From NCBI GenBank assembly GCA_900768845.1, contig CAAGEK010000020.1, positions 14,011-78,010 of the forward strand: a stretch of DNA of 64,000 nucleotides, written 5' to 3'. Source of the DNA: Alphaproteobacteria bacterium (GTDB taxonomy: Bacteria; Pseudomonadota; Alphaproteobacteria; CAAGCB01; CAG-977). A program made the translations under genes and the position numbers. Of the stretch, positions 3,009 to 58,544 are shown one piece after another (position 1 is the first letter of the stretch; each line of letters begins with the position of its first letter). The notes beneath the pieces are model-generated. The model was given only the letters and a program-made list of their open reading frames with translations. It ran no database searches and had not been told where the DNA came from.

Positions 3009-3036
3009 TTGATTTTTCCCGCACGTCTTATATAAT
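3009..3036 (+). promoter_or_regulatory. Sigma-70-like promoter TTGATT-N16-TATAAT upstream of the MBOAT operon
   Basis: TTGATT at 3009-3014, 16-nt spacer, perfect TATAAT at 3031-3036, about 40 nt upstream of the 3078 start. Confidence 0.5.
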
Positions 3037-3077
3037 CCGTCGTATTTTGAAAGACCGACAAAAGTACAGAGGTTCTT

Positions 3078-4493
3078 ATGATTTTCAGCTCTTTTACGTT
3101 TTTATGGTGTTTCCTGCCGCCCTTGCTGGCTTTGTATTTTTTAATTAAAAGCCCCGTTTTGAAAAACGTCCTGCTTTTGGCGGCCAGCATTTTGTTTTAT
3201 GCTTGGGGCGAACCGCTGTATGTTTTTTTAATGATGGCTTCGGTTATCCTGAACTTCTTTTTCGGGCTGGCCATCGGCAGGGCGGAAACGCAGAAAAGCC
3301 GTAAAATCCTGACCCTGTTCGGCACGATCGTCAATATCGCGATTTTAATGCATTTCAAATATACGGACTTCATTATCGAAAATATGAACCTGTTATTGCA
3401 AATGCAGATTGACGCGAAGGAAATTCCCCTGCCGATCGGCATTTCTTTCTATACGTTCCAAGCCATTTCCTACCTGATCGACATTTACCGCGGAGAGGTC
3501 AAAGCCCAGAAAAGCATCCTGAAAATGGGGTTGTATATCGCGTTTTTCCCCCAAATGGTCGCAGGCCCCATCATCAAATACCACGACATCGAGCCCGAAT
3601 TGGAAAAACGCACGGTTACGCCGGAAATGTTCAATTACGGCGTATCGCGTTTCATTTTCGGTTTTGCAAAAAAAATCCTGCTGGCGAACATCACGGGCAA
3701 AGCCGCCGATACGTTGTTTGCTTTGGAAGCCGGCGATTTGTCGACACCCGCGGCTTGGGTCGGAGCGATAGCCTATTCCATGCAAATTTATTTCGATTTT
3801 TCCGGATATTCCGATATGGCCATCGGTTTGGGCAGAATGTTCGGTTTCACGTTTCAGGAAAACTTCAATTACCCTTACATTTCCTCTTCCATTCGCGAAT
3901 TTTGGCAACGTTGGCACATTTCTTTGGCCACATGGTTCAAACAATACGTTTATATCCCGCTGGGCGGCAGCCGGAAAGGCGATTTCCGCACATATCTGAA
4001 CACGATGATTGTTTTCTTTTTAACGGGTTTATGGCACGGCGCGGCATGGAACTTCGTCCTGTGGGGTGTTTGGAACGGGTTGTTCATCTTGTTTGAAAGG
4101 GCGATTCAATTCGACAAGTATGTCAAAATCCGCCTTATCCGCCATATTTACACATTATGGGTCGTCGTCGTCGGAATGGTCATTTTCCGCACGAATTCAA
4201 TCAAAGAGGCGATCACTTATCTGACGCATATGTTCAACTTTAAAAACATGGACGTTTCCTATTTGAACATTCTGGTGACGAACGAGCCGCGTTTGGCGAT
4301 CGTCGCGTCGTTGCTGTGTTGCGGGCCTCTGGTCGTGTTCTGGCGCAAGTACGGGGAAAGGATTTTGTCTTTCGTTCCCGCCGCCGTAAAAGGCACATGG
4401 CCTGTCGAACTGACGAAAATCGCGCTGTTCATCCTGTCGATTCTGGCTTTGGCCGGCAATTCGTACAATCCGTTCATTTATTTCAGGTTCTGA
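3078..4493 (+). CDS. MBOAT-family membrane-bound O-acyltransferase (AlgI/DltB/PatA-like)
   Basis: Polytopic 471-aa protein with FYAWGEP, FFPQMVAGPI, YTFQAISYLID and WQRWHISLATWFKQYVYIPLGGSR motifs typical of MBOAT acyltransferases. RBS AGAGG is present. Confidence 0.85.
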   Translation: MIFSSFTFLWCFLPPLLALYFLIKSPVLKNVLLLAASILFYAWGEPLYVFLMMASVILNFFFGLAIGRAETQKSRKILTLFGTIVNIAILMHFKYTDFIIENMNLLLQMQIDAKEIPLPIGISFYTFQAISYLIDIYRGEVKAQKSILKMGLYIAFFPQMVAGPIIKYHDIEPELEKRTVTPEMFNYGVSRFIFGFAKKILLANITGKAADTLFALEAGDLSTPAAWVGAIAYSMQIYFDFSGYSDMAIGLGRMFGFTFQENFNYPYISSSIREFWQRWHISLATWFKQYVYIPLGGSRKGDFRTYLNTMIVFFLTGLWHGAAWNFVLWGVWNGLFILFERAIQFDKYVKIRLIRHIYTLWVVVVGMVIFRTNSIKEAITYLTHMFNFKNMDVSYLNILVTNEPRLAIVASLLCCGPLVVFWRKYGERILSFVPAAVKGTWPVELTKIALFILSILALAGNSYNPFIYFRF

Positions 4494-4498
4494 GCCTT

Positions 4499-5611
4499 AT
4501 GAAAAAACTGAGCGCATCCGTTTATGTATTTCTGGCCGTGATTGCGGTTTGCTTCGCGTTTAACTTCGTCCCGCTTGAGGACGACGATCAATCGGAAAAC
4601 AGGCGCAAAGCCCCTTTCCCGACGGAAATTTCAACAAAATTCCCCTCTTTGTTCGACAGGTTTTACGAAGACCATTTCCCGTTCCGCTCCTTTTTGATTA
4701 AAAAGTTCTACACCGTCAGGAAAAGTATCAAAGACAACCCGAAAGTCATCATCGGAGTTGATGATTGGATTTTTTTGAATTCCTCCCCGTTCAATACATA
4801 CGCGAAATCGGATAACACGCTGGGCGATTTCACGGGTAAAACCCTGTTGAACGACGAAGACGCCAAAGCTTTTGAATCAAAAATCGAAGCGCAAAAGAAA
4901 TATTTCGATGAACGCGGCATCCGTTTTCTGATTATGATTCCGCCCAATAAAATGACGGTTTATCCGGAATTCACCCCCAAAGGATACCGCAAGTTGCGCA
5001 CAATGCGATCCCGTTACGAGCAAACGGAGGAGGCCATCCGCAAAGCCGACGTTCCGTTCATCAACCTGAAAAAGCTGTTTGAAAAGGAAAAAGGCGAATA
5101 TCCGCTGTATTACAGAACGGACACCCACTGGAACGATTTGGGGGCATACATCGCTTTTCGCAATTTGTTGAACGTGTTGCACGCCGAAACGCCGGAAATC
5201 GAACGCATAGAAATCGCCGACAGCGAATGCGGCGACAATTACCGTATGTCCGGATTGTCCGATGCGTGTTCCGATTTGCATCACAGGCCGGTTTTAAGCT
5301 TTAAAAACGACGAAGGACAATGCGTTTTGCAAGAAAACGCCGGACATCTGATTTGCACGAACGCTTCCGCGCCGTACCGCGAACATATCGTCATCGGCAG
5401 GGATTCCTTTACGGAAAAGCTGATCCCCTATTTCAGCCGTTTATTCAAAAGGACGGTTTTCATCTGGTCGGGCAAGGTGTCCGACAAGGAAATGTTCGAT
5501 ATCATCGAAACGGAAAAGCCCGATATCGTCCTGTACAACTACGCCGAGCGCAACGTGTCCCAAACGGCCAAGGACGTTCCGGTTCAAAAAAACGGGAAAA
5601 ATGAAAAATGA
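4499..5611 (+). CDS. AlgJ/AlgX-like (DHHW/SGNH-like) periplasmic O-acetyltransferase paralog A, N-terminal TM anchor
   Basis: ATG at 4499 immediately follows the MBOAT stop (4491-4493); the listed ORF 4316.. is an upstream extension overlapping the MBOAT gene. Motifs FPFRSFLIKKF, LGDFTGKTLLNDED, PPNK..YPE, LYYRTDTHW, CGDNYRMS, GRDSF. Confidence 0.75.
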   Translation: MKKLSASVYVFLAVIAVCFAFNFVPLEDDDQSENRRKAPFPTEISTKFPSLFDRFYEDHFPFRSFLIKKFYTVRKSIKDNPKVIIGVDDWIFLNSSPFNTYAKSDNTLGDFTGKTLLNDEDAKAFESKIEAQKKYFDERGIRFLIMIPPNKMTVYPEFTPKGYRKLRTMRSRYEQTEEAIRKADVPFINLKKLFEKEKGEYPLYYRTDTHWNDLGAYIAFRNLLNVLHAETPEIERIEIADSECGDNYRMSGLSDACSDLHHRPVLSFKNDEGQCVLQENAGHLICTNASAPYREHIVIGRDSFTEKLIPYFSRLFKRTVFIWSGKVSDKEMFDIIETEKPDIVLYNYAERNVSQTAKDVPVQKNGKNEK

Positions 5612-6837
5612 AGAACCTGTCCCTTTCAAGCCGGATTTTCCTGATAACCGTCCTGTTGTTCGGGGCGTTGACTTACCTGTTGTTCGGAGAAATTTTTTAC
5701 TACCGCCTGACGGGACACAGCGAAGAAAGGCTGTTTTTCTCCTTTCCGACGAAGGTTGATTCCGAAAACCGCGCAAAGGCGAAGTTCCCTTCAAAGCTTG
5801 ACGCACGTTTTCCCAAAGACTTCGATATCTTTTTCAACGACGCTTTCCCGTTCCGTTCAAAACTGATCAAACGTTTCTTCAAACTCCGCGTTTTGCTCAG
5901 CGACAACCCGAACGTCATCCCCGGAAAGGAAAACTGGTTCTTTTTCAATTCGTCCTCTTTAGACATTTACAAAAAAACGAACAACACGCTGGGCGATTTT
6001 ACGGGTAAAACTTTGCTCAACGACGAAGACAAAGAAACGTTCACCCGTCACATGGCCTGTCAGAAAAAATTCTTTGACGGTCTCGGTATGCAATTCGTCA
6101 TCATGACTCCGCCCAACAGGAAACCCGTTTACCCCGAACACCTGCCGGAACGTTACCGCAATCAGGGCGTCGCTTACGGCCGTTACGAACAGGTTGCGGA
6201 CATTTTAAAATCCTTGGGCATCGATTTCGTGGATGAAAAAGCCGCGCTGATAAACAACAAGGACAAAGGCGAGCTGTACTATAAAACGGATACGCACTGG
6301 ACGTTTTTAGGGGCTCATTACGGTTTTGCGGCTTTGGCCAAGCATTTCGGATACGATTTTCCGCCCGTCGTTTCCGTCAACCGGACGACCATTGAATGCG
6401 GCGATATGTACCGTATGTCGGCTTCGCTGGTCAAAACGTGCGCGGACGTCAGCGACACGCCCGTTTTGCCGCCGGTAAAAGCCGAAGGGAAATGCGATCT
6501 GGCGGACACGAAGCGCGTCGTTTGCGAAAACGCCGAAGCCCCCGTTCAAAAAAGCGTTGTCATCGTGCGCGATTCCATGTTCGACTTTTTATATCCCCAA
6601 GTCGCCCGCACCTTTAAAAAAACGTTGCTGTTATGGCGTTCCAAACACACCGAACGCGAACTGGCCGAAGAAATCAAAGCGTCCGGAGCCGACGCCGTCA
6701 TTTATGAACAAGGCGAACGCTTTATGCTGGAAATGCAAAACGAAGCGATTTGTCCCGACGACATTATCAAAGTCCCCCGTTTGGATCAACGCCCGCCCGC
6801 CGATGCGCAAAAAGGACGGGAAGGGGTTGAAAAATGA
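5608..6837 (+). CDS. AlgJ/AlgX-like O-acetyltransferase paralog B
   Basis: ATGA overlap with paralog A. Same motif set (FPFRSKLIKRF, LGDFTGKTLLNDED, LYYKTDTHWT, CGDMYRMS, VRDSMFDFLY). Confidence 0.75.
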   Translation: MKNLSLSSRIFLITVLLFGALTYLLFGEIFYYRLTGHSEERLFFSFPTKVDSENRAKAKFPSKLDARFPKDFDIFFNDAFPFRSKLIKRFFKLRVLLSDNPNVIPGKENWFFFNSSSLDIYKKTNNTLGDFTGKTLLNDEDKETFTRHMACQKKFFDGLGMQFVIMTPPNRKPVYPEHLPERYRNQGVAYGRYEQVADILKSLGIDFVDEKAALINNKDKGELYYKTDTHWTFLGAHYGFAALAKHFGYDFPPVVSVNRTTIECGDMYRMSASLVKTCADVSDTPVLPPVKAEGKCDLADTKRVVCENAEAPVQKSVVIVRDSMFDFLYPQVARTFKKTLLLWRSKHTERELAEEIKASGADAVIYEQGERFMLEMQNEAICPDDIIKVPRLDQRPPADAQKGREGVEK

Positions 6838-8051
6838 AGAAACTGTCGGCGTCTTCGTTGCTTTTCCTTGCGATCGTTCTGGTTTTCGGGGCGTTCAGCT
6901 ATCTGACGTTTGCGGAACTGTTGTACGACAGAAGCGCGGGATTGCCCGAAAAAACGCCTTTCTTTGCGTTTGAAACGGGAACGGATACGGAAAACCGTGC
7001 GAAAGCGGCCTTGCCCCGCAAAATCGGTTTTGATTTTTCACGCAATTTCGACGCTTTTTATAACGACGCTTTCCCTTTGCGCTCTTTTTTCATTAAACGC
7101 TTTCATTCTTTAAAGAAAAAAATCAAAGACAATCCGAAAGTCATCGCCGGATTGGACAATTGGATGTTTTACAATTCGTCGCCCGAATCCGTTTATGCGA
7201 AAACAGGCAACATTTTGGGCGATTTCACGGGTAAAACCCTGTTGAACGGCACGGACGAACAAAGCTTCACCCGTCACATGGCCTGTCAGGGCGAATATTT
7301 CAAAAAACGCGGCGTCCGCTTCATCGTGATGGTTCCGCCGAACAGAATGCCCCTGTATTCCGAATTTCTGCCCGACGCCTATCGCAAACAGGAAGCCCCC
7401 TTCGGCCGTTACGAGCAAATCAGGGAAATATTAAAAGGGCTGAATATCGAATTTCTCGACCTGAAAACGTTTTTCAAGCAAAAAAAATCGGAAGATTCCG
7501 CTCATCAGCTGTTTTACAAAACGGATACGCACTGGACTCCGTTGGGAGCGTATTACGGCTTTGGAGAATTGACCCGAACGACGGGATACGAACAGCCCGC
7601 CCCCGTCGCCGTCAAACGGGAAATACTGAGTTGCGGGGACGTTTACAAGGTTTCCAGCGCGGTGATGAAAACCTGTTTCGACATTCGCGACATTCCCGAA
7701 CTGCCGGAAACGGAATTTAAGGGACGTTGCGACTTTTCAAAAGCCCCCAAACACATCGTTTGCAAAAACGACAAAGCCCCCGTACAAAAAAACGTGTTGA
7801 TCGTACGCGATTCCATGTTTGATTTTTTGTACGACGAAGTGGCGCGTTCTTTTAAAAACACGGTGTTATTATGGCGTTCGATGCACACCGAACAGGAATT
7901 GTTTGATGAAATCGAAGCGTTTGACGCCGATATCGTTGTTTATGAACAGGGGGAACGTTTCATGCTGGAAATGCAAAACGAAGCGATTTGCCCCGACGAC
8001 ATCGTAAAAATCGACCGGCTTAATCAACGTCCGAAAGATCCCGAAAAATAA
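6834..8051 (+). CDS. AlgJ/AlgX-like O-acetyltransferase paralog C
   Basis: ATGA overlap with paralog B. Same motif set. Its C-terminal 30 aa are nearly identical to paralog B (YEQGERFMLEMQNEAICPDDI). Confidence 0.75.
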   Translation: MKKLSASSLLFLAIVLVFGAFSYLTFAELLYDRSAGLPEKTPFFAFETGTDTENRAKAALPRKIGFDFSRNFDAFYNDAFPLRSFFIKRFHSLKKKIKDNPKVIAGLDNWMFYNSSPESVYAKTGNILGDFTGKTLLNGTDEQSFTRHMACQGEYFKKRGVRFIVMVPPNRMPLYSEFLPDAYRKQEAPFGRYEQIREILKGLNIEFLDLKTFFKQKKSEDSAHQLFYKTDTHWTPLGAYYGFGELTRTTGYEQPAPVAVKREILSCGDVYKVSSAVMKTCFDIRDIPELPETEFKGRCDFSKAPKHIVCKNDKAPVQKNVLIVRDSMFDFLYDEVARSFKNTVLLWRSMHTEQELFDEIEAFDADIVVYEQGERFMLEMQNEAICPDDIVKIDRLNQRPKDPEK

Positions 8052-8075: not shown

Positions 8076-9551
8076 TTAAAGATTCAGGTCTTTAAAGACG
8101 ACGCCTTTTGCAGGAACGGTTATTTTTTGCGAATGAAGCGCATCCCCGTTCACCGACACCCGCATTTCATAATCGCCGGCGGGCAAACGGAAAGATTGCA
8201 TCCAAATGCTTTCGGGCAAAGTACTCCAATATCGCAAATCCGCCTGTTCCGACGCCTCTATCAACAACAGGGAAGTCGCGAAAGTCAGCTGAGCCCATCC
8301 TGCGCCGTGTTTTTCATAAATCGCCCTTGCGGCGGCCAGAGCCGCAATGTATTTCACGGTCAGGCGCGCCGCTTTCGCCGCATATACGGCCGGACGCGCC
8401 GTGTTTAAATCCCGAACGGCGATTTGGGAAACAGGATCAAGCAACGCCGGCGTTTTTTCCGCGACGGTTTTTCCTCCGTCCGGTTTTACAAAAGCAATCT
8501 TTACGTCGGCATTTTGTTCTTTATCGTCGAAAGCCGGCAATTCAAAGCTCAGCAAACCGGAAGAAATCATATTTGCAAAAGATTTGTCCGACACGGCGAG
8601 AGGAACCGGAAAAGAAACTCTTTCCGCTTTTTTGCGGGCGATCCGTCCCGTTTTCAACACAATAAAAACATTCGGCTTTTTATTTGAATTCATATTTTTC
8701 AAAGCCGTTTTCGCGTATGTTTTCAACGCTTTGGATTTCGGAGTCGCAGAAATCAGTTCGCTTTCGATTTCCTTTTCGTTTTTTTCGTGCAAAGACGGGA
8801 ATTGACCGGCGAAATCCCGATATTTCAGGTTATACGCGGGATAAAGATTGTAGTTTCTGAACAAAACCGTACCGGCGTCTTTGTACAGCTGGCGGGAAAT
8901 CTGCCTGTCTTCGGACGACCCGTTTTCTTCATGAATGAAACCGCCCCACAGCTTTGCCGCCAAATCCTGTTTGAATAAAACTTCGCCCGCTTTTTGCGAT
9001 TGAAATTCCTTCAGCAAAGCATCCCAATCGACGACGACGGCTCTTGCCGCCATCAAATGCATCCTTTTTTCCTTTTCCGTCAGGATTTTTTCAGGAACGG
9101 CATTTCCCGTTTCCCGATCGGTAAAGGCCTCATACCGGCCGTTCAGGTACAGATGATAATGGCACAAAGACTGGTAAAATCGCAAAAGCGACAATTCATA
9201 AGCTTCGCCGGCGTAGTCGTCCCAAGAACCGGCGACGGCGGACGCCGCCGTGTTTGACAAACTGCGGGTATAAAGTTCTTTCGATTTGAGCCGGGCCGCG
9301 TCGAAATGTTTCAAAGCCTGATAATACGATCCGTTCAGGTAATGCAGGTTTCCCAATTCCAAATGACGCAAAAGAATCGATTCATCGTCCGTGTAAAAAT
9401 CATCAGACTCGGCTATTTTCAACGCTTCCGCCGTTTCGGAACGATACAGGGCTTCGCGGATTTCATCCTGCATGGCGTATCGGGAAACGGAGCAGCCCCC
9501 CGAAAACAGCAAAACGGCCAAAAGTGCGAAACGTTTCATTTGGCGGCTCAA
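8076..9551 (-). CDS. Lipoprotein with TPR-like helical repeats (COG3014-like)
   Basis: Signal peptide plus lipobox (LLFSGGCSVS). Helical repeat-rich 491-aa protein. Last gene of a convergent three-lipoprotein operon. Confidence 0.5.
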   Translation of the reverse strand: MSRQMKRFALLAVLLFSGGCSVSRYAMQDEIREALYRSETAEALKIAESDDFYTDDESILLRHLELGNLHYLNGSYYQALKHFDAARLKSKELYTRSLSNTAASAVAGSWDDYAGEAYELSLLRFYQSLCHYHLYLNGRYEAFTDRETGNAVPEKILTEKEKRMHLMAARAVVVDWDALLKEFQSQKAGEVLFKQDLAAKLWGGFIHEENGSSEDRQISRQLYKDAGTVLFRNYNLYPAYNLKYRDFAGQFPSLHEKNEKEIESELISATPKSKALKTYAKTALKNMNSNKKPNVFIVLKTGRIARKKAERVSFPVPLAVSDKSFANMISSGLLSFELPAFDDKEQNADVKIAFVKPDGGKTVAEKTPALLDPVSQIAVRDLNTARPAVYAAKAARLTVKYIAALAAARAIYEKHGAGWAQLTFATSLLLIEASEQADLRYWSTLPESIWMQSFRLPAGDYEMRVSVNGDALHSQKITVPAKGVVFKDLNL

Positions 9552-9554
9552 ACC

Positions 9555-10166
9555 TTACCAACCGAAAGAAGACTGTTTGGAATATTTGTTGATTTTACTG
9601 CGCGTCCTTAAAACTTCCACGCCTTTTTCAATGTCGGTCATTCGCATATTCACGGAATATTCCTTGATCGTTTTTCCGTCGCGTGTTCCGGGAACCATGC
9701 GCACCGCACCGAAAACGATTAAATCGGCTCCGGTCATCCTGCCGATTTTCTTAACATCCTTCGGATCGACGGAACCGTCGTTCTGATAGCTGATTTCCCG
9801 CAACAAACGGTCGCGTGCCTGTTCGTCGATCAAAACATAGTCGCCCGAAGCCGAAAATTCGGTCAGCAATTCGTCATTGATATCGCCGACGGGAAAATAA
9901 GCTTCGGAAGTCAGGTTCTGAACCTCTCCGATGAACAGTTTCGGTTCGCGCCCCAACTTCGCCAGATAATTTTGAAACCCGCGGTGTTTTTGAATCTGTT
10001 TCAAAATGTCCTGAACGGTCAATTCGGTATCTTTGGCAACCCATTGGTCGGTGATTTCCATCGCCAGTTCGTCCGAACGTTCCGCCGACACGCGTTCGGC
10101 TTTGAACGACGCACATGAAGCCGTCAAAATGCACGAAAGAATTAAAAACAAACCTTTTTTCATCAT
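9555..10166 (-). CDS. LpoB-like / COG3417-like small lipoprotein
   Basis: Lipobox ILTASCASF. ~200 aa. C-terminal GADLIVFGAV...MRMTDIEKG pattern resembles the LpoB fold family. 4-nt gap to the downstream gene. Confidence 0.4.
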   Translation of the reverse strand: MMKKGLFLILSCILTASCASFKAERVSAERSDELAMEITDQWVAKDTELTVQDILKQIQKHRGFQNYLAKLGREPKLFIGEVQNLTSEAYFPVGDINDELLTEFSASGDYVLIDEQARDRLLREISYQNDGSVDPKDVKKIGRMTGADLIVFGAVRMVPGTRDGKTIKEYSVNMRMTDIEKGVEVLRTRSKINKYSKQSSFGW

Positions 10167-10175
10167 TGTTTCCTT

Positions 10176-11096
10176 TTAAAAAGAGGGGATGTTTTCCGCC
10201 AAATACGACCGATAGGATTCCGCGGCGTATTCAAAAGCCTGACCGTACGTCCGCCCCGTTTCCGAAAACGACGCGACCGCGGTTTCCTTCCTTACACCTT
10301 TTGCGTCGGTGAAAACCAGCCTGAAATTAAAAAGATAACGCACGAATCCTTTGACATTCAAATGCTGTTTTCCCGAAGAGAAAAGGACGTCAAGCGTTAC
10401 GGCCGGCCGCCCTCCGGTTCCGGCCAAAGCATAGCCGGCCTGTTCCAAAACGCTTCGGACGCTTTGCGTTAAAAGGGGGGATTCGGAACGGACGAACAAA
10501 ACTTTCCCCTCCGTCGCTTTTCTTTTACAGTCCAAAACATCGGCATACGGCACCTTTTCAGGCAAAAAATCCCCCGTCAGAACCGCATATTTCGCATTCA
10601 AAGACTTTCTTTGCACGGCCGCACGTTCGGCTTTCACGGCGTCGGGCAACGAACCGCGGGATACGGCGTCTTTGATATTTTCATCAAGCTTTTCAATGTC
10701 CTTTTTCAAAATCGCGGCGGACAAGGGCTTGTTCAAAACCGCCAAAGCGTAAACGGACTTTCCGCCTTCAAACGTTTCCCTGATTTCCGCGGTGTTGAGC
10801 AGAAAATCCGTCCGCTCCGTCACGTTTTGGCTCAAGCCGGCTTCCGTTTCCGTTTCCGAAACCGCGCTCACCGCATCGATTTTCGTTTCCAAAATCTTGG
10901 CCAGTTCAAGCCTTGCGTTTATTCCGGCGGCATTGCGTCCCGTTCCCTCCCCGACGGCGCACAATTCGTCGGCGGAACAGCCCGCATCGGGTTTTTCCAA
11001 CCAAGCCGGAGGCAAAGACCCGACATCGGCGATGCGCAAAGGCGGAACCGGTGTGCAGGCACTTAAAAAAACAAATGTTAAAACAATACGCTTCAA
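10176..11096 (-). CDS. LPP20-domain lipoprotein
   Basis: Lipobox FLSACTPV. Segment ELCAVGEGTGRNAAGINARLELAKILETKIDAVSAVSE resembles the LPP20 lipoprotein family. First gene of the minus-strand trio. Confidence 0.45.
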   Translation of the reverse strand: MKRIVLTFVFLSACTPVPPLRIADVGSLPPAWLEKPDAGCSADELCAVGEGTGRNAAGINARLELAKILETKIDAVSAVSETETEAGLSQNVTERTDFLLNTAEIRETFEGGKSVYALAVLNKPLSAAILKKDIEKLDENIKDAVSRGSLPDAVKAERAAVQRKSLNAKYAVLTGDFLPEKVPYADVLDCKRKATEGKVLFVRSESPLLTQSVRSVLEQAGYALAGTGGRPAVTLDVLFSSGKQHLNVKGFVRYLFNFRLVFTDAKGVRKETAVASFSETGRTYGQAFEYAAESYRSYLAENIPSF

Positions 11097-11434: not shown

Positions 11435-12358
11435 ATGGCTAAAAAAATATGGAAAGCGGGAACGATGCTGTATCCCGCGCCGCCCGTCATGGTGACGTGC
11501 GGAACGGCGGAAAAGGCGAATGTCTTTACGGCGGCGTGGACGGGGATTGTCAATTCGGAACCCCCGATGACGTATGTGTCCGTCCGTCCGTCGCGGTATT
11601 CCCACGAATTGATCAGCGAAACGGGAGAGTTCGTCATCAACCTGACAACGGCGGATTTGATAAAAACGGCCGATTTTTGCGGAGTCAAATCGGGTCGCGA
11701 TATGGACAAGTTCGCCGAAACGGGATTGAAAACCGTTCCCGCTTCCGATGTTTCGTGCCCGTTGCTGGAAGCTTCCCCCGTTTGTTTGGAATGTCGGGTG
11801 ACGGAAGTGAAGTCTTTGGGATCGCACGATATGTTTTTGGCGCGAATCACGGCCGTGGACATTGACGAATCGCTGTTGGACGAGACGGGAGCCTTGCAAT
11901 TGGAAAAAGCGCATCTGGCGGCGTTTTGCCACGGAAAATACCATGCCGTCGGCGCAGAATTGGGGACGTTCGGTTTTTCCGTCATGAAAAAGAAAACCAG
12001 AAAACGCCGCATCGCCGAAATCAAAGAGGAACGCAGGGAAAAACGTCTGCATCAGAAAAAGGAAACGGTTGAAGAATCTTTTGAACCGGAAAGGCCGAAA
12101 CATTTTTCAAAGCCCGCCTTTAAAAAGGGCGGTTCTTTCCCTTTGCGCGGCAGACGGACGGAAAAGGAGGAAGGCGCGGCGAAACGTCCGTCCGGCGAAA
12201 GGCAGGAACGCCCGTTCGGGAAAGAAGGCAAACGCCCTTTCAACGGTGAAAGGAAACGTCCGTTTAAAAACAACGGCAAATTTACGGAACGGGAAACGGA
12301 AAGGACGTTCAAGAAAAAGCCCTTTTTGAAAAAGAAGCCTTTTAAAAGGGGCGAATGA
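11435..12358 (+). CDS. Flavin reductase-like (FMN-binding split-barrel) domain protein with ~130-aa K/R/E-rich C-terminal tail containing RPF repeats
   Basis: N-terminal ~170 aa match the flavin reductase domain pattern (MTYVSVRPSRYSHELI, GEFVINL, DKFAETGL). The tail carries ERPFGKEGKRPFNGERKRPFKNNGKF repeats. AAGGA RBS 9 nt upstream. Confidence 0.6.
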   Translation: MAKKIWKAGTMLYPAPPVMVTCGTAEKANVFTAAWTGIVNSEPPMTYVSVRPSRYSHELISETGEFVINLTTADLIKTADFCGVKSGRDMDKFAETGLKTVPASDVSCPLLEASPVCLECRVTEVKSLGSHDMFLARITAVDIDESLLDETGALQLEKAHLAAFCHGKYHAVGAELGTFGFSVMKKKTRKRRIAEIKEERREKRLHQKKETVEESFEPERPKHFSKPAFKKGGSFPLRGRRTEKEEGAAKRPSGERQERPFGKEGKRPFNGERKRPFKNNGKFTERETERTFKKKPFLKKKPFKRGE

Positions 12359-12469
12359 AATCAAAAGCGCGGGAATCCCTTTGTTTCCGCGCTTTTAAAC
12401 ACTCCCCGCCATCGGTTGACGGTTTTGCCCGATTGACGTATACTTTCCGGCGAAAGGAACGATAAAGCC

Positions 12470-13600
12470 ATGTCTTTGAAAGCCGCCTTCAACCGGATTT
12501 TTAAATCGAAACCCTCCGTCGGCCGGTACGACCTGCACGGCATAACGGTAAACGTTGCACCGGATGAAAAGGCGAATGTCGAAGCCCTGTTCGATGCATT
12601 GGCTTCCGTTCCCTCCGGACGGCAGGCTTTGGACGATATGGCGCAATACAAGACCGCTTTCTTTTTGGAATCGGGGCTGAAGACGGCAAACGCCTTTTTC
12701 AATCCGGAAAGCAACGCCATCGTTATGGACAGGTCTTTGGATCCCGCGGCCATGCAATTCATTTTGGTGCATGAAGCGCGTCATTTGCGGCAATGGCATC
12801 AGGGACGCAAAGAGGCGGAAGCCCTGAATCCGGATTTCGCATCGAAAATGATGCTTGTCAAAGCGACGGAAGCCGACGCTCAGGTTCAGGCCTTCCAAGC
12901 CTGTTTGGAATGGCGGGAACGGGGGAACGCCGCTCCGATGGAGCAATTTGAAAAGCGAGACCGTTCGATTGTTGACGGTTTCAACCGCTCCCGTTCCCTT
13001 TCGGGTGCTTTCAAAGGCTGGTATGACAACGATTTGACCGTTGCCGTTTACGAATTCAATCACGGAATTTTCCCCGCTCTGATGTATTTGGATGAAAATC
13101 CTGAGGAAAAGCGGCCTTTCACATCTTTAAAGCCGGCGGATATCGCCCGATTTTGCGGCGGGAATCGCATTGAAGGGTTTGAACGTTTTTTGGATTCCCC
13201 CAAAGCCCGCCGGATGCATTTAATGACCAAAACCGCCGCCGAAATTTATGATTCCGTTTCGACGGCGAAAGGTGCCGCTCATGATCCGTCGTTGAAGGGC
13301 GTCCCCCTTGTTCCTTTGAACGAAAGCCCCTGCACCCGAATGGCGGCGGATCTTCTTGTTGCACGAACGCACAACACTTTTCCCCCGTCTTTGACAAAAA
13401 ATCCGGTCAAGCGCAATATTTTAAAAACCCTGAATGCGGTTGCGGTTTGCGTTGAAAAGATGAATCGTGCGGAAATCAAAGGCGTAACGGATATTGAGGC
13501 CTCCGCCGGTTTGGAAGAAAGCAAAAAACGGGTTTTGAATGCCGTAAACAAAAACCCTTTGCAAGCCTTGCTTCCCGCTTATTGTTCATCCCGCAACTGA
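12470..13600 (+). CDS. Hypothetical cytoplasmic protein with HExxH zincin-like motif (putative metallopeptidase), no signal peptide
   Basis: AAGGAA RBS. Motif ILVHEARHLRQWHQGRKEAEAL, with HEARH plus downstream Glu residues. Gene lies directly upstream of tRNA-Arg. Confidence 0.6.
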   Translation: MSLKAAFNRIFKSKPSVGRYDLHGITVNVAPDEKANVEALFDALASVPSGRQALDDMAQYKTAFFLESGLKTANAFFNPESNAIVMDRSLDPAAMQFILVHEARHLRQWHQGRKEAEALNPDFASKMMLVKATEADAQVQAFQACLEWRERGNAAPMEQFEKRDRSIVDGFNRSRSLSGAFKGWYDNDLTVAVYEFNHGIFPALMYLDENPEEKRPFTSLKPADIARFCGGNRIEGFERFLDSPKARRMHLMTKTAAEIYDSVSTAKGAAHDPSLKGVPLVPLNESPCTRMAADLLVARTHNTFPPSLTKNPVKRNILKTLNAVAVCVEKMNRAEIKGVTDIEASAGLEESKKRVLNAVNKNPLQALLPAYCSSRN

Positions 13601-13743: not shown

Positions 13744-13821
13744 TGGCGCGCCCAAGAAGATTCGAACTCCTAGCCTTCTGATCCGTAGTCAGATGCTCTA
13801 TCCAGTTGAGCTATGGGCGCC
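13744..13821 (-). tRNA. tRNA-Arg (anticodon ACG), CCA encoded
   Basis: Minus-strand sequence GGCGCCCATAGCTCAACTGGATAGAGCATCTGACTACGGATCAGAAGGCTAGGAGTTCGAATCTTCTTGGGCGCGCCA. Cloverleaf with anticodon loop CUACGGA and T-arm GGTTCGAATCC-like. Confidence 0.9.
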
Positions 13822-15315: not shown

Positions 15316-16605
15316 TTGGTTACGGCAAGACAAAACGGCGAACAACAATTCTTGGATATGCTTTACCGCATTGAAGGGATGAGGCGTGACATCCAGATCG
15401 TTCATCTGAAACTGTCCGCCCTGTCCGCGACCGACCGGCAGGATGAAAGACAGAACCATGTCATGACGTCTTTGTTGGACGCTTTCCTGAGCCGGTCGAA
15501 AGCCCGCCTGTTTTCCATGTCGGACGGAGATTTCTTCATCGTCGTCCATTCGCTTTCCCGCCCTTTGTTGCAAAACCTGACGGACGCTTTAAGAAGGCTG
15601 TACCGCTCCGATCCGCTGACAAAAGCTCCGCCCATCCGTTTTTGCGAAGTCATCGAGCTGGAATACGAATATGACGCCGTTTTGAAACTTGCGCGTCAAA
15701 AAGCCGACAACGCGGGCAAGGCAACCCTCAAAAAAGAACAGCCGCGGGATTTGGTTCCCTTGGCTCCCGAACATCTGGACGCCATCTTGCGCAACATTCG
15801 GGGGTTCAACATCCTGAAAGTCATCCGCAGACAGGAAGCCATCCGGATTTCCCGAAACGGCAAATACACGTCCCTGTTCAAGGAATATTTCACTTCGATG
15901 GCCGATTTAAAGGCCGCAATCGCTCCGGACGTCGACGTTTTGTCGAACAGATGGCTGTTCCAACACCTGAGCGAAACGCTGGACGAACGGATGTTGTCGG
16001 TGCATGACAGCCTGTTTGCCCGAACACCGGGGAATATCAGCCTGAACCTCAACATTTCAACGATTTTTACGAACGCTTTCGAACATTTTCTGGAACAAAT
16101 GCCCGAATCAAAGTTTATCGTTGTCGAAGTCCAGCTGATGGACATTATTCAAAACACCAAAAACTTTATCACGGCCAAAGAATTGTTGCGCGAAGCGGGA
16201 CACAAAATCCTGATTGACGGCTTGCATCCGATTTCTTTGCAATTTCTGGATTTGAACCTGTTGGATCCCGATTTGATCAAGCTCAACTGGTCGGCGGCGA
16301 TTCTGGAAAATGCGGGAACGTCGGGATTGAAGGACGCTTTAAAGGAAATCGACCCCGAAAAGATCGTTTTAATGCGTTGCGAAGACGAAAACGCCGTCAA
16401 ATGGGGGCTGACCAACGGCATTACGCGTTTTCAGGGCTACTTTATCGACGCGTTGTCGGGTGCGGGCGTCAAGCGTAAATGTCAAAACGGCGACGGTTGC
16501 TCTTTGCAACAGTGTATAGCCAGAAAATCGTGTATCGCCGGTTCCGTGCGTTCCCAATGCCTGAATCAGGATGCGCTGGACTCCCTGATTGAAGAAAACC
16601 TGTAG
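15316..16605 (+). CDS. Degenerate GGDEF-EAL protein, paralog 1 (catalytic motifs lost; candidate c-di-GMP receptor)
   Basis: GGDEF region reads ARLFSMSDGDFFIVVHSL (RxGGDEF replaced). EAL region reads ILIDGLHPISLQFLDLNLLDPDLIKLNWS ... VLMRCEDENAVKWGLTNGITRFQGYFIDAL (DDFGTG...KIDRSF...AEGVE...QGY pattern with catalytic residues substituted). TTG start inferred from alignment with paralog 2; an ATG at 15359 is the alternative. Confidence 0.6.
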   Translation: MVTARQNGEQQFLDMLYRIEGMRRDIQIVHLKLSALSATDRQDERQNHVMTSLLDAFLSRSKARLFSMSDGDFFIVVHSLSRPLLQNLTDALRRLYRSDPLTKAPPIRFCEVIELEYEYDAVLKLARQKADNAGKATLKKEQPRDLVPLAPEHLDAILRNIRGFNILKVIRRQEAIRISRNGKYTSLFKEYFTSMADLKAAIAPDVDVLSNRWLFQHLSETLDERMLSVHDSLFARTPGNISLNLNISTIFTNAFEHFLEQMPESKFIVVEVQLMDIIQNTKNFITAKELLREAGHKILIDGLHPISLQFLDLNLLDPDLIKLNWSAAILENAGTSGLKDALKEIDPEKIVLMRCEDENAVKWGLTNGITRFQGYFIDALSGAGVKRKCQNGDGCSLQQCIARKSCIAGSVRSQCLNQDALDSLIEENL

Positions 16606-16613
16606 GAGGGACA

Positions 16614-17846
16614 ATGATACAAAACCAAGAGGAATCCCTCCGCGCCTATTTGCACGAAGCCATCAAAAACAAAGCCCCGACGACCGTGTTGCAGCTGAAA
16701 ATATCCCTGCTCGATCCGGTTTTGCGGACGGAAAACACTCTGGGAACGATTGTCGAGAATTTCAGGGACGCCCTGTATCCTTACGGCCGCGCTTTCTACA
16801 TGGCGAACGACGACATTTTCATCGCCTATTCTTTAAAAACCAAAGAAAACGAAATCAAAGCCCTGTTGATAAAAACATGGATTTGGTTTTCCGCCGACCC
16901 TCTGGCGTCCACGCCGGAAAAGCTGGAACGCCGCTTTTTCCTGCCTCAGGATAAAACGTCGCTGATGGAGGAGTTGCGCCGCATAACGGCGACGGCTCAA
17001 GAAGAAAAAGACGCATTGCCCGTCACGGCCGGCATCAAAAAGAAATTCATCCTGCCGCCGTCAAACGACAAGAACCACAAACTGTTGACGCCGGAAATGC
17101 TGTCAAGAATGGAAAAAGCGTTGACGGGGACGGATTTCGCCAACATGATCCGCCGCCAATCCGTTTGCGCCGTGTTGGACGACATCGACCCCCAGCCGAT
17201 GTTTGAAGAGGTCTTTGTCTCCATCGCCGATTTGGGAGATGCGATTCTGCCCGACGTGTCCCTGACGGCGACTCCGTGGCTGTTTCAGGATCTGACGGAA
17301 ACATTGGACAAGCGGATTTTGTTGAGCATCTCGCGTCACGACGACAAAACCCTGACCCATGATTTCAGCTTGAACCTGAACGTTTCCTCGATTCTTTCGG
17401 ATAATTTCAAAAAGTTTGACGACAACCTGCTTTCGGGAGTGAAGTCTTCCATCGTTTTGGAATTGCAACCCGTCGATATTTTCAGCGATTTGTCTTCATA
17501 CCTGTTGGCGCGGGATTATGCGCAAAATCAAGGGTATAAAATATGTATCGACGGCGTTACGGAAAAAAGCCTGCGTTTCATCGACCGCGAACGGCTGGGA
17601 GCCGATTTTTTAAAGCTGATCTGGACGCCCGAGCTTCCCGAAATCTTCGGGAATGATCCGCTGTTGCAGGACAGGTTGCAAACAATCGGGGCGAATCGAG
17701 CCGTTTTATGCCGCGTTGACGATGAACAGGCTTTGAAATTCGGCAAGTTTTACAACATTTCCCTGTTTCAGGGACGCTATATCCAGAACCTTCTGGCGAA
17801 CAACATCCGCCGCCGGCGCGTCGGAACAACTTTGTTAAGGAGATAA
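16614..17846 (+). CDS. Degenerate GGDEF-EAL protein, paralog 2
   Basis: 8-nt gap with GAGGGA RBS after paralog 1. RAFYMANDDIFIAYSL (degenerate GGDEF). ICIDGVTEKSLRFIDRERLGADFLKLIWT ... VLCRVDDEQALKFGKFYNISLFQGRYIQNL (degenerate EAL). Confidence 0.6.
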   Translation: MIQNQEESLRAYLHEAIKNKAPTTVLQLKISLLDPVLRTENTLGTIVENFRDALYPYGRAFYMANDDIFIAYSLKTKENEIKALLIKTWIWFSADPLASTPEKLERRFFLPQDKTSLMEELRRITATAQEEKDALPVTAGIKKKFILPPSNDKNHKLLTPEMLSRMEKALTGTDFANMIRRQSVCAVLDDIDPQPMFEEVFVSIADLGDAILPDVSLTATPWLFQDLTETLDKRILLSISRHDDKTLTHDFSLNLNVSSILSDNFKKFDDNLLSGVKSSIVLELQPVDIFSDLSSYLLARDYAQNQGYKICIDGVTEKSLRFIDRERLGADFLKLIWTPELPEIFGNDPLLQDRLQTIGANRAVLCRVDDEQALKFGKFYNISLFQGRYIQNLLANNIRRRRVGTTLLRR

Positions 17847-32438: not shown

Positions 32439-33164
32439 ATGACAAAACAAGAACGGAAAAATATCGATTTCATATTTGAACAATGCCCCGAATTGTTGTC
32501 AACGGGCAGCAAAGAGCAGTATGCCCGATATGTAAAAACCATATTTCCATCAAGCTCTACACATTCGATATTTTTTCACGGCGGCAGGAAAGGTATCGAA
32601 AAATTCATCGCCCCCTCGGATAAGGACGCTTTTAAAAAGAACAAAGGCGTTCACAGCGGAACAAAAGATTACGGCATTTATTTCACTGCGGATAAATCTT
32701 TGGCGAAAAATTACGCGAAGGGACATCCGAAAAACAACCGCCGGATTTATGCGGTCGTGCTGAATATGCAAAATCCGCTTAAAACGGATGCGTGGTTCGC
32801 TTTGAACATCCGGCGGGCTTTAGGGGATAAAAGCGTGTTCAATCCGCAAAGCATCACACAGGACGATTACGACAGATTCATCGCCCCGCAAAATCACGAC
32901 AGCGTTTTATGGCACGGAGAAAAAGGCGAGGCCGTCGTTTTCGATCCTGAACAGATTCATATTCTGGGATCCGGAAAAGACGTAAGAATGTTCGGAAAAT
33001 GGGTTGAAATTCAAGAACGGCTTGCCGGAAAAAAACGCGAGGCGTTTTCCTTAAAACCGTTTTCTCCGAAAGAAACCGTGCAAGAAACGGCGCGTCCGGC
33101 GTGTCGGGACATCCCTTCTTCAAGCGTATTGAATCTGCTTCGCCGAAAAAGGCAAAACGGCTGA
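32439..33164 (+). CDS. Stand-alone PARP-like (H-Y-E type) ADP-ribosyltransferase catalytic domain protein
   Basis: FFHGG (His47), DYGIYFTADKSLAKNYA (Tyr81, Tyr92; compare PARP GKGIYFADMVSKSANY) and GEAVVFDP (Glu164; compare PARP NEYIVYD). His-to-Tyr and Tyr-to-Tyr spacings (34 and 11) match PARP1. No signal peptide. Confidence 0.6.
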   Translation: MTKQERKNIDFIFEQCPELLSTGSKEQYARYVKTIFPSSSTHSIFFHGGRKGIEKFIAPSDKDAFKKNKGVHSGTKDYGIYFTADKSLAKNYAKGHPKNNRRIYAVVLNMQNPLKTDAWFALNIRRALGDKSVFNPQSITQDDYDRFIAPQNHDSVLWHGEKGEAVVFDPEQIHILGSGKDVRMFGKWVEIQERLAGKKREAFSLKPFSPKETVQETARPACRDIPSSSVLNLLRRKRQNG

Positions 33165-35909: not shown

Positions 35910-35951
35910 TTTTTTTCAAACGCGGGGCTTTATGCGGAAATAAAATAAAAA

Positions 35952-36043
35952 GGAAACCGGATGACGACCCGTTCCGAACCGTTACGGCTGCTTTCTTCCG
36001 AACCTGACCGGATTGGCGGCGGGAACGCCCGCTCCGATTTCCC
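35952..36043 (-). ncRNA. ffs: Signal recognition particle RNA (4.5S RNA, ffs), small type
   Basis: Minus strand contains the domain IV consensus GGUCAGGUUCGGAAGAAAGCAGCC within an extended hairpin (5' GGAAAUCGGAGCGGG ... 3' CGGGUCGUCAUCCGGUUUCC). Immediately upstream of dnaX as in many bacteria. Ends are approximate. Confidence 0.65.
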
Positions 36044-56517: not shown

Positions 56518-58407
56518 ATGTCTGAACAAATGCCTAAATGGGACTTAAACGACTTATACCCCGGCATGGATTCGCCGGAATTGAAAAAAGACATCGCCGC
56601 CGTCAGCGCAGGGGCTTTGAAGTTTGAAACCCGCTACAAGGGAAAACTGGAAGGCGCAACCCCCGACGAGTTCGGAAATTCCATTGAAGAATATGAAAAA
56701 TTAAACGAAACGCTCGGCCGTTTGGATGCGTATTCCTATATGTTGCATTCAACGAACATGAACGATGCGAAAATTTCGACCTTTTACCAAAACATTCAGG
56801 AAAAATCCAACGACGTTGCGAACAAAATGCTGTTCTTTGAATTGGAACTGAACGGTTTGTCGGATGAACAAATCGCCGAAAAAATGGTTTCCCCCAAAGC
56901 CAAAAATTACGAGCCGTGGGTCAAAAACGTCCGCGCCGCCCGCGATCACAAGCTGTCCGAAGATCTGGAAAAAATGTTGCACGAAAAATCCGTCGTCGGC
57001 GCGGCGGCTTGGAACCGTCTGTTTGATGAGACGATGGCTTCCTTGCGCTTTAACATCGACGGCCGGATGGTCACCGAACCCGAAGCCATGAATATCATCT
57101 CGTCTTCGCCCGACGCCGAAAAACGTCATGCCGCCGGTGCGGAAGTCGACCGCGTCATGAAGCAAAATATGCCCGTTTTCGCGTTGATTACGAACACTTT
57201 GGCAAAAGACAAGCAGATCGAAGACGAATGGCGCGGCTATAAACGTCCCATTTCCGCCAGAAACGTTGAAAACCAAGTCGAAGACGAAGTCGTTGACGCG
57301 CTGGTTGATACGGTCGTTGCAAACCACGAAGACGTTTCCCACCGCTTTTACAAAATGAAAGCCGATTGGCTGGGCGTTGACAAACTGGAATACTGGGACA
57401 GGAACGCTCCGTTGCCCGATATGCCCGAAAAGAAATACAGCTGGGAGGAAGCCAAAAACATCGTTTTGGCGGCTTATAACGAATTTTCGCCCGAAATGGC
57501 GGCAATCGGCAAAAAGTTCTTTGACAACAAGTGGATCGACGTCGCTCCCAAAGAAGGCAAGGAAGGCGGCGCGTATGCCCATCCGACCGTTCCGTCGGCG
57601 CATCCTTATCTGATGTTGAACTTTATGGGCAAAACGAACGACGTTATGACTTTGGCGCACGAACTGGGGCACGGCGTGCATCAGTATCTGGCCAATTCCC
57701 AAGGGATGTTGAAAGCCAATACGCCGATTACTCTGGCGGAAACGGCTTCGATTTTCGGCGAGATGGTGACCTTCCAATATATGTTGAAGCACGAAAAGGA
57801 TCCGAAGCAGAAATTCGCGATGTTGGCAGAAAAGACCGGAAGTATGCTCAACTCCACGGTTCGCCAGATTGCTTTCCACCGTTTTGAAACACAAGTTCAC
57901 ACGGAACGCCGCGAAAAGGGCGAAGTCGCCCCCGAACGGCTGGACAAGATTTGGACGCAGGTTCAAACGGATGCTTTGGGCCCCGCCGTTAAAAACGATG
58001 AACGTTCCAGTTCTTCATGGGCGACGATTCCCCATTTGATCCATACGCCGTTCTATGTTTACGGTTATGCGTTCGGCGATTGTCTGGTCAATTCGCTTTA
58101 CAGCGTCCATCAGGAAGGCAAAGTCGAAGACTTCCCCAAAAAGTATATGGAAATGCTGTCCAAAGGCGGATCCGAACGTCATCAGCAGATGCTCAAACCC
58201 TTCGGGCTTGACGCGTCCAAACCCGATTTCTGGCAGAAAGGTTTGAACGTTGTCAAAGGCTTTGTCGATCAGTTGGAAGTCCTGACGGACGAGTTGGGAA
58301 TGAACCGTAACAAAGCCAAACAGACCGGCAAACAAGCCGAAACGAAACAAACGCCCGCCGCACAAAAAGGCGTCGCCAAAAAAGTTTCGGACTTAAAATC
58401 CAGATAA
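56518..58407 (+). CDS. pepF: M3-family oligoendopeptidase (PepF-like)
   Basis: HELGHGVH zinc-binding motif with downstream Glu; 629 aa. Confidence 0.8.
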   Translation: MSEQMPKWDLNDLYPGMDSPELKKDIAAVSAGALKFETRYKGKLEGATPDEFGNSIEEYEKLNETLGRLDAYSYMLHSTNMNDAKISTFYQNIQEKSNDVANKMLFFELELNGLSDEQIAEKMVSPKAKNYEPWVKNVRAARDHKLSEDLEKMLHEKSVVGAAAWNRLFDETMASLRFNIDGRMVTEPEAMNIISSSPDAEKRHAAGAEVDRVMKQNMPVFALITNTLAKDKQIEDEWRGYKRPISARNVENQVEDEVVDALVDTVVANHEDVSHRFYKMKADWLGVDKLEYWDRNAPLPDMPEKKYSWEEAKNIVLAAYNEFSPEMAAIGKKFFDNKWIDVAPKEGKEGGAYAHPTVPSAHPYLMLNFMGKTNDVMTLAHELGHGVHQYLANSQGMLKANTPITLAETASIFGEMVTFQYMLKHEKDPKQKFAMLAEKTGSMLNSTVRQIAFHRFETQVHTERREKGEVAPERLDKIWTQVQTDALGPAVKNDERSSSSWATIPHLIHTPFYVYGYAFGDCLVNSLYSVHQEGKVEDFPKKYMEMLSKGGSERHQQMLKPFGLDASKPDFWQKGLNVVKGFVDQLEVLTDELGMNRNKAKQTGKQAETKQTPAAQKGVAKKVSDLKSR

Positions 58408-58426
58408 GGCGTTAATTTCTAAAAAA

Positions 58427-58459
58427 GAGCGGCGGTTTCCATAAACTGCCGCTTTTTTG
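58427..58459 (+). terminator. Rho-independent terminator after pepF
   Basis: GAGCGGCGG ... CTGCCGCT hairpin followed by TTTTTT. Confidence 0.65.
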
Positions 58460-58544
58460 TCGTCCGTAAACACCCCATCGGATGTTACGAAAATGATTGT
58501 TTTAGATTTTTCAATCTCTTAAATTATTAAAAAAGGAGTTTATC

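Follow-up and report, generated by a model that had tools for sequence, protein, structure and literature searches.

One MBOAT O-acyltransferase and three tandem AlgJ/PatB1-type paralogs in a predicted four-gene operon of a gut alphaproteobacterium

Pairs of an MBOAT membrane acyltransferase and an SGNH-family protein acetylate peptidoglycan, alginate, cellulose and wall polysaccharides, with effects on lysozyme resistance, immune evasion and biofilm properties. It is a long-standing puzzle that some of these systems have one SGNH-like partner and others two, and whether the second is a relay or a terminal enzyme is unsettled. The peptidoglycan and wall-polysaccharide systems have one SGNH-like protein per MBOAT (PMC4148444, PMC10302187). 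In alginate acetylation, AlgJ, which is membrane-anchored and does not bind polymer, acts as an intermediary, and AlgX, which is not membrane-tethered, is the terminal transferase (PMC4148444); in cellulose acetylation the MBOAT WssH works with two SGNH-like proteins, WssI and WssF (PMC10302187). Two such proteins per MBOAT have also been proposed for the Komagataeibacter xylinus bcsII operon (PMC4148444, PMC10302187), and the WssI paper raises the possibility of two terminal O-acetyltransferases (PMC10302187). In PatA, acetyl-CoA serves for the auto-acetylation of the Tyr in a C-terminal FxYxxF motif, and this Tyr passes the group on to the PatB Ser, a Tyr-shuttle mechanism that Anderson et al. 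proposed for all MBOAT-SGNH pairs (PMC12148441). Here we analyse a 64,000-nucleotide (nt) stretch of an uncultured alphaproteobacterium (contig CAAGEK010000020.1 of assembly GCA_900768845.1, positions 14,011 to 78,010; 'the window'), in which positions 3078-8051 hold an MBOAT gene followed by three tandem genes for AlgJ/PatB1-type SGNH-like paralogs, named here J1, J2 and J3. The operon most likely O-acetylates one or more envelope glycans in this human-gut bacterium (at least one related contig is labelled human gut metagenome). Housekeeping proteins of the window share clusters, at 90% identity or more, with 'Acetobacter sp. CAG:977' and with metagenome-assembled genomes labelled Alphaproteobacteria bacterium. 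Its elements are as follows (aa, amino acids).

3009-3036, + strand: sigma-70-type promoter, with -35 TTGATT at 3009-3014, a 16-nt spacer and -10 TATAAT at 3031-3036
3068-3072, + strand: ribosome-binding site AGAGG, 5 nt 5' of the MBOAT ATG
3078-4493, + strand: MBOAT of AlgI/PatA type, 471 aa (Pfam MBOAT)
4499-5611, + strand: J1, short class, 370 aa counted from the ATG (Pfam ALGX)
5608-6837, + strand: J2, long-class duplicate, 409 aa (Pfam ALGX, tree)
6834-8051, + strand: J3, long class, 405 aa (Pfam ALGX)

The MBOAT stop codon (TGA, 4491-4493) is followed after 5 nt by the J1 ATG at 4499, and ATGA overlaps join J1 to J2 (5608-5611) and J2 to J3 (6834-6837); gene positions, stop/start coupling and overlaps, all part of an original prediction made for this DNA, agree with the open reading frame map and with the sequence as read. 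The promoter is the top promoter-like site between 700 and 8400 (10/12 matches). By number alone such sites are what chance would give (6 found in the region vs 6.5 expected; a promoter and terminator scan returned no enrichment over shuffles), and we take this one as real because it is conserved across six lineages: in an alignment of the spacer between MBOAT and the Bax-like gene upstream (89 nt in the window), TTGnnT and TATATAAT are invariant while the flanking spacer has diverged, and the ribosome-binding block AAAAGTACAGAGG is kept as well. Given the invariant -35 and -10 elements, the 5-nt gap and the two ATGA overlaps, the four genes read as a transcription unit of their own, and 3009-8051 as a four-gene operon with its own promoter.

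All three paralogs match Pfam ALGX (PF16822, cut-off 26.5 bits; J1, E 3.7e-20 and 73.2 bits; J2, 1.2e-18 and 68.2; J3, 1.1e-17 and 65.0), each over the first half of the model (positions 1 to ~130 of 268). Against Pfam DHHW (PF14286, cut-off 25 bits) J2 passes with 29.3 bits and J1 (21.9) and J3 (21.3) fall below, so that an assignment to ALGX/DHHW holds for ALGX in all three and for DHHW in J2 only. The same Pfam search gave one weak sub-threshold match to the AT3-associated SGNH domain among the paralogs and returned no PatB-family match. Pairwise identities are 40-56%, and the three proteins share the motifs FPFRS/FPLRS, LGDFTGKTLLN (invariant), PPN(K/R), (Y/F)Y(K/R)TDTHW, CGDxY(R/K)(M/V)S and RDS(F/MF). 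The key residues lie at the following positions.

J1: PPNK, aa 148-151; TDTHW, 207-211 (D208, H210); RDS, 301-303 (S303); class motif WSGK
J2: PPNR, aa 168-171; TDTHW, 227-231 (D228, H230); RDS, 321-323 (S323); class motif WRSKH
J3: PPNR, aa 168-171; TDTHW, 230-234; RDS, 325-327; class motif WRSMH

The signature motifs of AlgJ are three hydrophobic residues followed by PxK, with a structural Lys, and (R/K)TDTHW (PMC4148444). The second, which carries the catalytic Asp and His, reads RTDTHW in J1 and KTDTHW in J2 and J3; the first reads MIPPNK in J1, with the Lys kept, and PPNR, with Arg, in J2 and J3. The Lys is kept in all 31 sequences that we compared except the four of the J2/J3 clade. In the alignment of these 31 sequences, at 16% mean identity, the only invariant residues besides the initial Met are Thr, Asp, His and Gly in the TDTHW region and the RDS serine, which lies ~95 residues past TDTHW in J1, J2 and J3 and aligns with the KDS block of PatB1. 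By these alignments J1-J3 are genuine paralogs that each keep the Asp-His-Ser triad, in the permuted His-then-Ser order of AlgJ, AlgX and PatB1. The blocks defined for PatB1 include Block V, TDHHW, and Block II, DxRY, with an oxyanion-hole Arg (PMC9487903). In the segment aligned with Block II we did not find DxRY; the short class (J1) has WSGK here and the long class (J2, J3) WRS(K/M)H, whose Arg is one position out of register with R359 of PatB1 in the sequence alignment.

Structure prediction and profile searches point the same way. AlphaFold2 models of J1 and J2 (predicted local distance difference test 84.4 and 84.6, respectively) were compared with solved structures by Foldseek, and the top 11 Protein Data Bank (PDB) matches of the two models are 4o8v, 5v8d/e, 4nzk, 4knc and 7ula (E 2e-13 to 1e-8; next >0.1). 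For J1 these are PatB1, AlgJ, the DHHW protein 4nzk and AlgX at E 2e-12 to 8e-9 (next >0.1), and for J2 AlgJ 4o8v stands at E 2.4e-13; the two modelled paralogs are thus predicted to have an SGNH-like fold of the AlgJ/AlgX/PatB1 type. A profile of the paralogs and their relatives, searched against solved structures, matched PatB1 5v8d near full length (E 9e-21), AlgJ 4o8v (3e-14), then 4nzk, and AlgX weakly. Although PatB1 tops these sequence matches, the paralogs are, judged by their TDTHW, better classed as AlgJ-type than as DHHW-type. At the start of each lie 18-24 uncharged residues, which form a helix in the models of J1 and J2 (in J2 a predicted transmembrane helix, aa 6-35), and all three are predicted to be anchored in the inner membrane. 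The claims that each paralog has its own N-terminal anchor, that the three share a set of motifs (every motif listed was found) and that the locus is an O-acetylation module of AlgI/AlgJ/AlgX type are therefore upheld, the last by the agreement of Pfam MBOAT and ALGX matches, the structural neighbours of J1 and J2 and the triad residues, and the first as a prediction.

The MBOAT itself matches Pfam MBOAT (PF03062, E 3.8e-33) and has the conserved His within WHISL (aa 279-283, nt 3912-3926). Its C-terminus, ...NPFIYFRF, carries in FIYFRF (aa 466-471, nt 4473-4490) the invariant Tyr of FxYxxF, an ending found in 77/81 MBOATs of the surveyed loci, 49/81 of them as FIYFRF. We considered DltB and rejected it: the TIGR04091 score is 155 bits vs a cut-off of 375, and there are no Dlt partner genes within the cluster. 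Unlike in DltB, the shuttle motif is here fused to the MBOAT.

We found close relatives through exact-protein contig look-ups (L081, L085/L095, L088, L090 and L092), and a metagenome contig scan with J2 gave two loci, both of the L085 type. The module-bearing relatives share a backbone in which dnaK-dnaJ is divergent from DUF2333, Bax, MBOAT, a short (~370 aa) and a long (~403 aa) paralog. J1 orthologs occur in all six module-bearing lineages, and J3 orthologs are the last module gene in L085, L088 and L092. Three enzymes per MBOAT, as in the original prediction, are present in the window and in L085/L095; this is not the conserved state, since the other four lineages (L081, L088, L090 and L092) have exactly two paralogs, short and long. 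In a neighbour-joining tree the two classes are deeply split (~40% identity); among long-class genes, J2 of the window and of L085 form the sister group of a J3 clade made up of window, L085, L088 and L092 genes, with L081 and L090 outside both. The conserved core is MBOAT with two old paralog classes; from its placement J2 is a long-class duplicate younger than the split from L081 and L090, and it has been lost since, at least in L088 and probably in L092.

The classes differ strictly. Following Block I, short-class proteins read WSGK and long-class proteins WRS(K/M)H, strictly conserved; a C-terminal extension, GERFxLEMQNEAxCPD...RLDQRP, is present in the long class only (conserved in J2 as GERFMLEMQNEAICPD...RLDQRP, with the same extension in J3); and the Cys count is 4 in the short class and 6 in the long. 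Such strict differences between the classes speak for functions that have diverged. Short and long paralogs are more alike in the N-terminal helix region than over the proteins as a whole (59% vs 41% identity). J2 and J3 are 56% identical to each other, and J2 of the window is 69% identical to its L085 ortholog. Between window and L085, a pair for which dS is saturated, dN/dS is 0.07-0.13 across the operon genes (J2, 0.13), and all operon genes are under purifying selection. We rejected the possibility that the single long paralog of L088 is a J2/J3 recombinant from unequal crossing-over, its N-terminus being 45-51% identical to L085 J2. Synonymous divergence between L085 and L088 is uneven over the operon (J3 0.22, MBOAT 0.52, J1 0.82), which suggests recombination or gene exchange inside the locus near the site of J2 presence or absence.

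Beyond these relatives, a profile search of genome contigs with the paralog alignment gave 80 distant loci among the matches listed, at <=32% identity, to which the counts below refer. In ~70 of them, from many phyla, the MBOAT is followed directly by a single AlgX-like gene. Arrays were seen only in Phycisphaerae: MBOAT with 2 copies in three Tepidisphaeraceae loci (L054, L075, L076), MBOAT with 2 intact copies and one truncated copy in L068, and, in L074, an array in fragments. In the Phycisphaerales locus L068, the third AlgX-like gene (12229-13101) encodes 290 aa, lacks the Block I serine region and may be a decaying gene or the product of an assembly frameshift. Since planctomycete and alphaproteobacterial copies fall in separate clades of the tree, we regard the arrays in Phycisphaerae and in gut Alphaproteobacteria as independent. 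The family counts ~20,000 representatives at 50% clustering, and the gut alphaproteobacterial clade is an isolated twig of two representatives. Clustering of the neighbours of the 80 modules found GT2 glycosyltransferases (11/80 loci) as the only shared partner, with no peptidoglycan link and no clue to the substrate of the window clade. Among the homologs, P0030-P0037 and P0017 (~695 aa) have an AT3 acyltransferase domain (PF01757) fused to an AlgX-like domain, so that an AT3 domain can take the place of the MBOAT in feeding an AlgJ-type module.

Directly upstream of the operon lie two genes of the backbone.

961-2031: DUF2333 gene, upstream of the Bax-like gene
2056-2988: Bax-like gene

The original prediction had the Bax-like glucosaminidase gene together with the promoter at the head of the unit. 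The promoter keeps that place through its six-lineage conservation; the Bax-like gene does not, because it lies upstream of the conserved promoter, and because a further relative, L097 (Bax 46% identical), has dnaKJ, a DUF2333-like gene and Bax directly followed by mlaEFD, without the MBOAT module. In L081 and L090 the module is placed between Bax and the same mla genes. The DUF2333-like and Bax-like pair (961-2988 in the window, 5973-7933 in L097) stands beside divergent dnaK-dnaJ in all relatives, and both proteins begin with a hydrophobic segment; a literature search on DUF2333 found nothing informative. The Bax assignment is itself borderline (Pfam Glucosaminidase 30.4 bits vs a cut-off of 30.2; NCBIfam 'protein bax' 68 bits, cut-off 193), and a PDB sequence search with this protein gave only spurious lectin matches. 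With a promoter in between and L097 lacking the module, the two genes look like neighbours, next to which the module was inserted in a syntenic backbone, and their adjacency does not speak for a peptidoglycan target.

How, then, might one MBOAT serve three paralogs? The explanation that we favour, with a confidence somewhat better than even, is that the MBOAT is a single donor, a hub for several parallel terminal transferases that are distinguished by acceptor site or by glycan. The MBOAT would take an acetyl group from cytoplasmic acetyl-CoA, the donor expected for it, by way of the conserved His of WHISL and, by a shuttle as in PatA, load it on Tyr468 of FIYFRF at the periplasmic face. Each of the three membrane-anchored periplasmic paralogs would dock on the MBOAT by its conserved N-terminal helix, its Block I Ser (RDS), activated by the Asp and His of TDTHW, would receive the acetyl group, and the paralog would pass it to a sugar hydroxyl, the three acting in parallel rather than in series. 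The N-terminal hydrophobic helix of all three paralogs puts them at the inner membrane beside the MBOAT, and its conservation between classes fits a shared docking partner and suggests a common docking surface. Parallel action is favoured because no AlgF-like mediator is present and because most of the distant loci work with a single copy; that J2 is gained and lost among close relatives, in turn, is easier to reconcile with an added specificity than with a relay step that cannot be skipped. The short and long classes would then represent an old, non-redundant division of labour, and J2, as the more recent long-class duplicate, would add or split a specificity. A wider claim, that the MBOAT is an acyl-tyrosine hub for interchangeable docked AlgJ-type transferases, each with its own acceptor (different hydroxyls or different envelope glycans, possibly both peptidoglycan sugars among them), and that tandem duplication is a general route to diversifying surface acetylation, we put forward only tentatively and think more apt to fail than to hold.

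It is conceivable, though unlikely, that the paralogs act in series, as for alginate: one of them (e.g. the short class) would hand the MBOAT's acetyl group to the long class as the sole terminal transferase, with J2 and J3 as alternative terminal enzymes. Alginate requires AlgJ and AlgX (PMC4148444) and cellulose WssI and WssF (PMC10302187), and short and long classes occur together in every module-bearing lineage, as expected if both were required. However, with all paralogs predicted to be membrane-anchored there is no spatial gap to bridge, whereas AlgX is untethered; there is no AlgF-like or WssG-like mediator; the helix is kept in both classes; and the Tyr-to-Ser transfer from PatA to PatB is direct, without an intermediary (PMC12148441). 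Nor is it probable that the set combines transferase and esterase like PatA-PatB-Ape1, at least one paralog stripping O-acetyl groups to tune or recycle the modification; we give this a slender chance. The Gram-negative peptidoglycan cluster does consist of one MBOAT and two SGNH-family proteins of opposite activity (PMC12148441), and AlgJ, AlgX and WssI are all esterase-active in vitro, but among the characterised proteins of the AlgX/DHHW clade there is no dedicated esterase, and all three paralogs here have the same catalytic blocks and anchor, with no sequence feature that marks a hydrolase.

Two other explanations concern the target and the need for a third copy. The module might O-acetylate peptidoglycan together with the upstream Bax-like glucosaminidase, for example by acetylating N-acetylmuramic acid and N-acetylglucosamine (GlcNAc) and thereby controlling that hydrolase. 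In favour of this, the Bax-like protein contains a domain of GH73 type, with the motif IEATGWG, and DUF2333, Bax and MBOAT are adjacent in 6/6 module-bearing lineages; in Lactobacillus plantarum, moreover, a GH73 autolysin is inhibited when GlcNAc is O-acetylated. We nevertheless consider this distinctly improbable: the conserved promoter splits Bax from MBOAT, L097 has the DUF2333-like gene and Bax without the module, the dnaK-dnaJ neighbours are equally conserved, as befits backbone synteny, 0/80 distant modules have a detectable Bax or DUF2333 neighbour, and the glucosaminidase match is at threshold. The third copy could also be redundant, kept for dosage or as a transient duplicate without new function, as the absence of J2 from L088, whose J3 ortholog shares 95% identity with its counterpart in the J2-bearing L085, and from L092 might lead one to think. 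We doubt this strongly, since J2 and J3 are so diverged, J2 orthologs have been retained in two lineages with a dN/dS (~0.13) similar to that of other genes, and J2 has conserved residues of its own, e.g. WRSKH vs WRSMH.

Several observations weigh against parallel transferases with separate acceptors. In alginate acetylation, the most thoroughly studied case with a pair of AlgJ/X-type proteins, the two are read as steps of a serial relay, each of them essential (PMC4148444). In the J2/J3 clade Arg replaces the PxK Lys, and in AlgJ the K137A variant of this residue abolishes function. The periplasmic domains of J1, J2 and J3 are nearly alike in net charge and in isoelectric point (8.1-8.4), so that they offer no electrostatic hint of the kind seen in the AlgJ/AlgX contrast and no sign of different acceptors. 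The module's flanks hold no genes for glycan synthesis or export, in the window or in the relatives. Finally, the trees are neighbour-joining trees without bootstrap support, and dS, as noted above, is saturated for the pair of window and L085.

Annotation of parts of the window gave core genes (ribosomal proteins, obg, proBA, fabDG, acpP, fabF, mltG, dnaB and others), and in these parts we saw no exopolysaccharide synthase, alginate, cellulose or PatB/Ape1 genes, in keeping with the predicted absence of alginate, cellulose or Pat partners. A convergent lipoprotein gene, ending at 8076, follows J3. It belongs to a set of three lipoprotein genes at 8076-11096 (- strand), which encode a 491-aa protein without a Pfam match and two others, LpoB-like (203 aa) and LPP20-like (306 aa), and converge on the J3 end; in L085, L088 and L092 the same trio is on the opposite strand, with a flavin reductase gene between it and the module, which indicates an inversion in the window lineage. 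At 15316-17846 (+) are two adjacent paralogous genes (429 and 410 aa) whose orthologs have only weak EAL-domain matches; they may encode degenerate cyclic di-GMP phosphodiesterases. A gene at 32439-33164 (+), after two small unannotated open reading frames and between a NUDIX gene and recR, encodes an ART-PolyVal (ADP-ribosyltransferase) domain protein and looks like a toxin-type gene inserted within a housekeeping stretch. The lowest GC content of the window (0.42 vs ~0.50 elsewhere) is found at 58001-60000, where several small genes have no Pfam match; this stretch adjoins the gene for a 747-aa PAS-GGDEF protein, at 60814-63057 (-). The sole Rfam matches in the window at gathering score are a tRNA gene at 13747-13820 (-) and a small bacterial signal recognition particle RNA at 35948-36043 (-).

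The layout had been put forward as undescribed. We found no description of three-copy arrays, or of arrays without AlgF and synthase genes, in the incomplete literature that we searched, and the literature on DHHW and algI/algJ in gut Alphaproteobacteria describes no tandem multi-paralog arrays; to this extent the claim stands. For alginate and cellulose, however, an MBOAT with more than one SGNH-like protein has been described before, and the novelty is therefore narrower: what is new here is a tandemly expanded, synthase-independent form of a known MBOAT-SGNH system, a modest variation and not a new mechanism. Notwithstanding, a compact operon without AlgF or synthase, with two anciently diverged paralogs and one recently duplicated, could help to solve the puzzle of partner number, and the natural presence and absence of J2 among close relatives offers a clean genetic and biochemical system, a natural experiment on that number. 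The locus would also reveal a surface modification of a common but uncultured lineage of human-gut Alphaproteobacteria.

Among described systems, the alginate AlgI/AlgJ/AlgF/AlgX system resembles the window cluster in that an MBOAT is accompanied by several proteins of AlgJ/X type, the AlgJ motif (R/K)TDTHW recurs in all three paralogs and PxK in J1, and D-x-H precedes the Ser; the window paralogs are N-terminally anchored as AlgJ is and stand above the Pfam ALGX threshold, and the two that were modelled, J1 and J2, have AlgJ and AlgX among their top structural neighbours. In contrast to alginate, the window cluster (MBOAT and three proteins of 370-409 aa without an extra domain) has no AlgF, AlgX-type carbohydrate-binding module or alginate synthase or export genes; it has three anchored tandem paralogs behind the MBOAT where alginate has two proteins, and J2 and J3 have Arg at the signature Lys. 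The WssF/G/H/I system of Pseudomonas fluorescens and K. xylinus bcsII likewise have one MBOAT, joined in Wss by two SGNH-like proteins, but the window has neither cellulose synthase genes nor WssG, and its paralogs are each other's closest relatives, from duplication within the lineage.

PatA1-PatB1 of Bacillus cereus/anthracis, which acts on a secondary cell wall polysaccharide and belongs to the DHHW family, shares with the window an MBOAT and an anchored SGNH-like protein without an intermediary, and a similar Block I (KDS in PatB1 vs RDS in the window paralogs). It differs in Block V, TDHHW rather than TDTHW, and we did not find the DxRY of its Block II in the window paralogs; PatB1 systems are, moreover, one-to-one pairs in Firmicutes, and only J2 of the window exceeds the DHHW threshold. 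With Gram-negative PatA/PatB/Ape1 the window shares the C-terminal FxYxxF of the MBOAT, the acyl-Tyr shuttle, and, behind the MBOAT, periplasmic proteins of SGNH type that begin with a helix (PMC12148441), but PatB (DUF459 family) and Ape1 are canonical SGNH proteins, whereas the window paralogs match ALGX/DHHW, and no Ape1-like esterase is recognisable in the window cluster. Finally, the orphan two-gene cassettes of MBOAT and AlgJ-like protein, whose MBOATs, in the loci listed, nearly always end in FxYxxF as that of the window does, are set apart by copy number: the clade to which the window belongs has two or three AlgJ-like genes in tandem.

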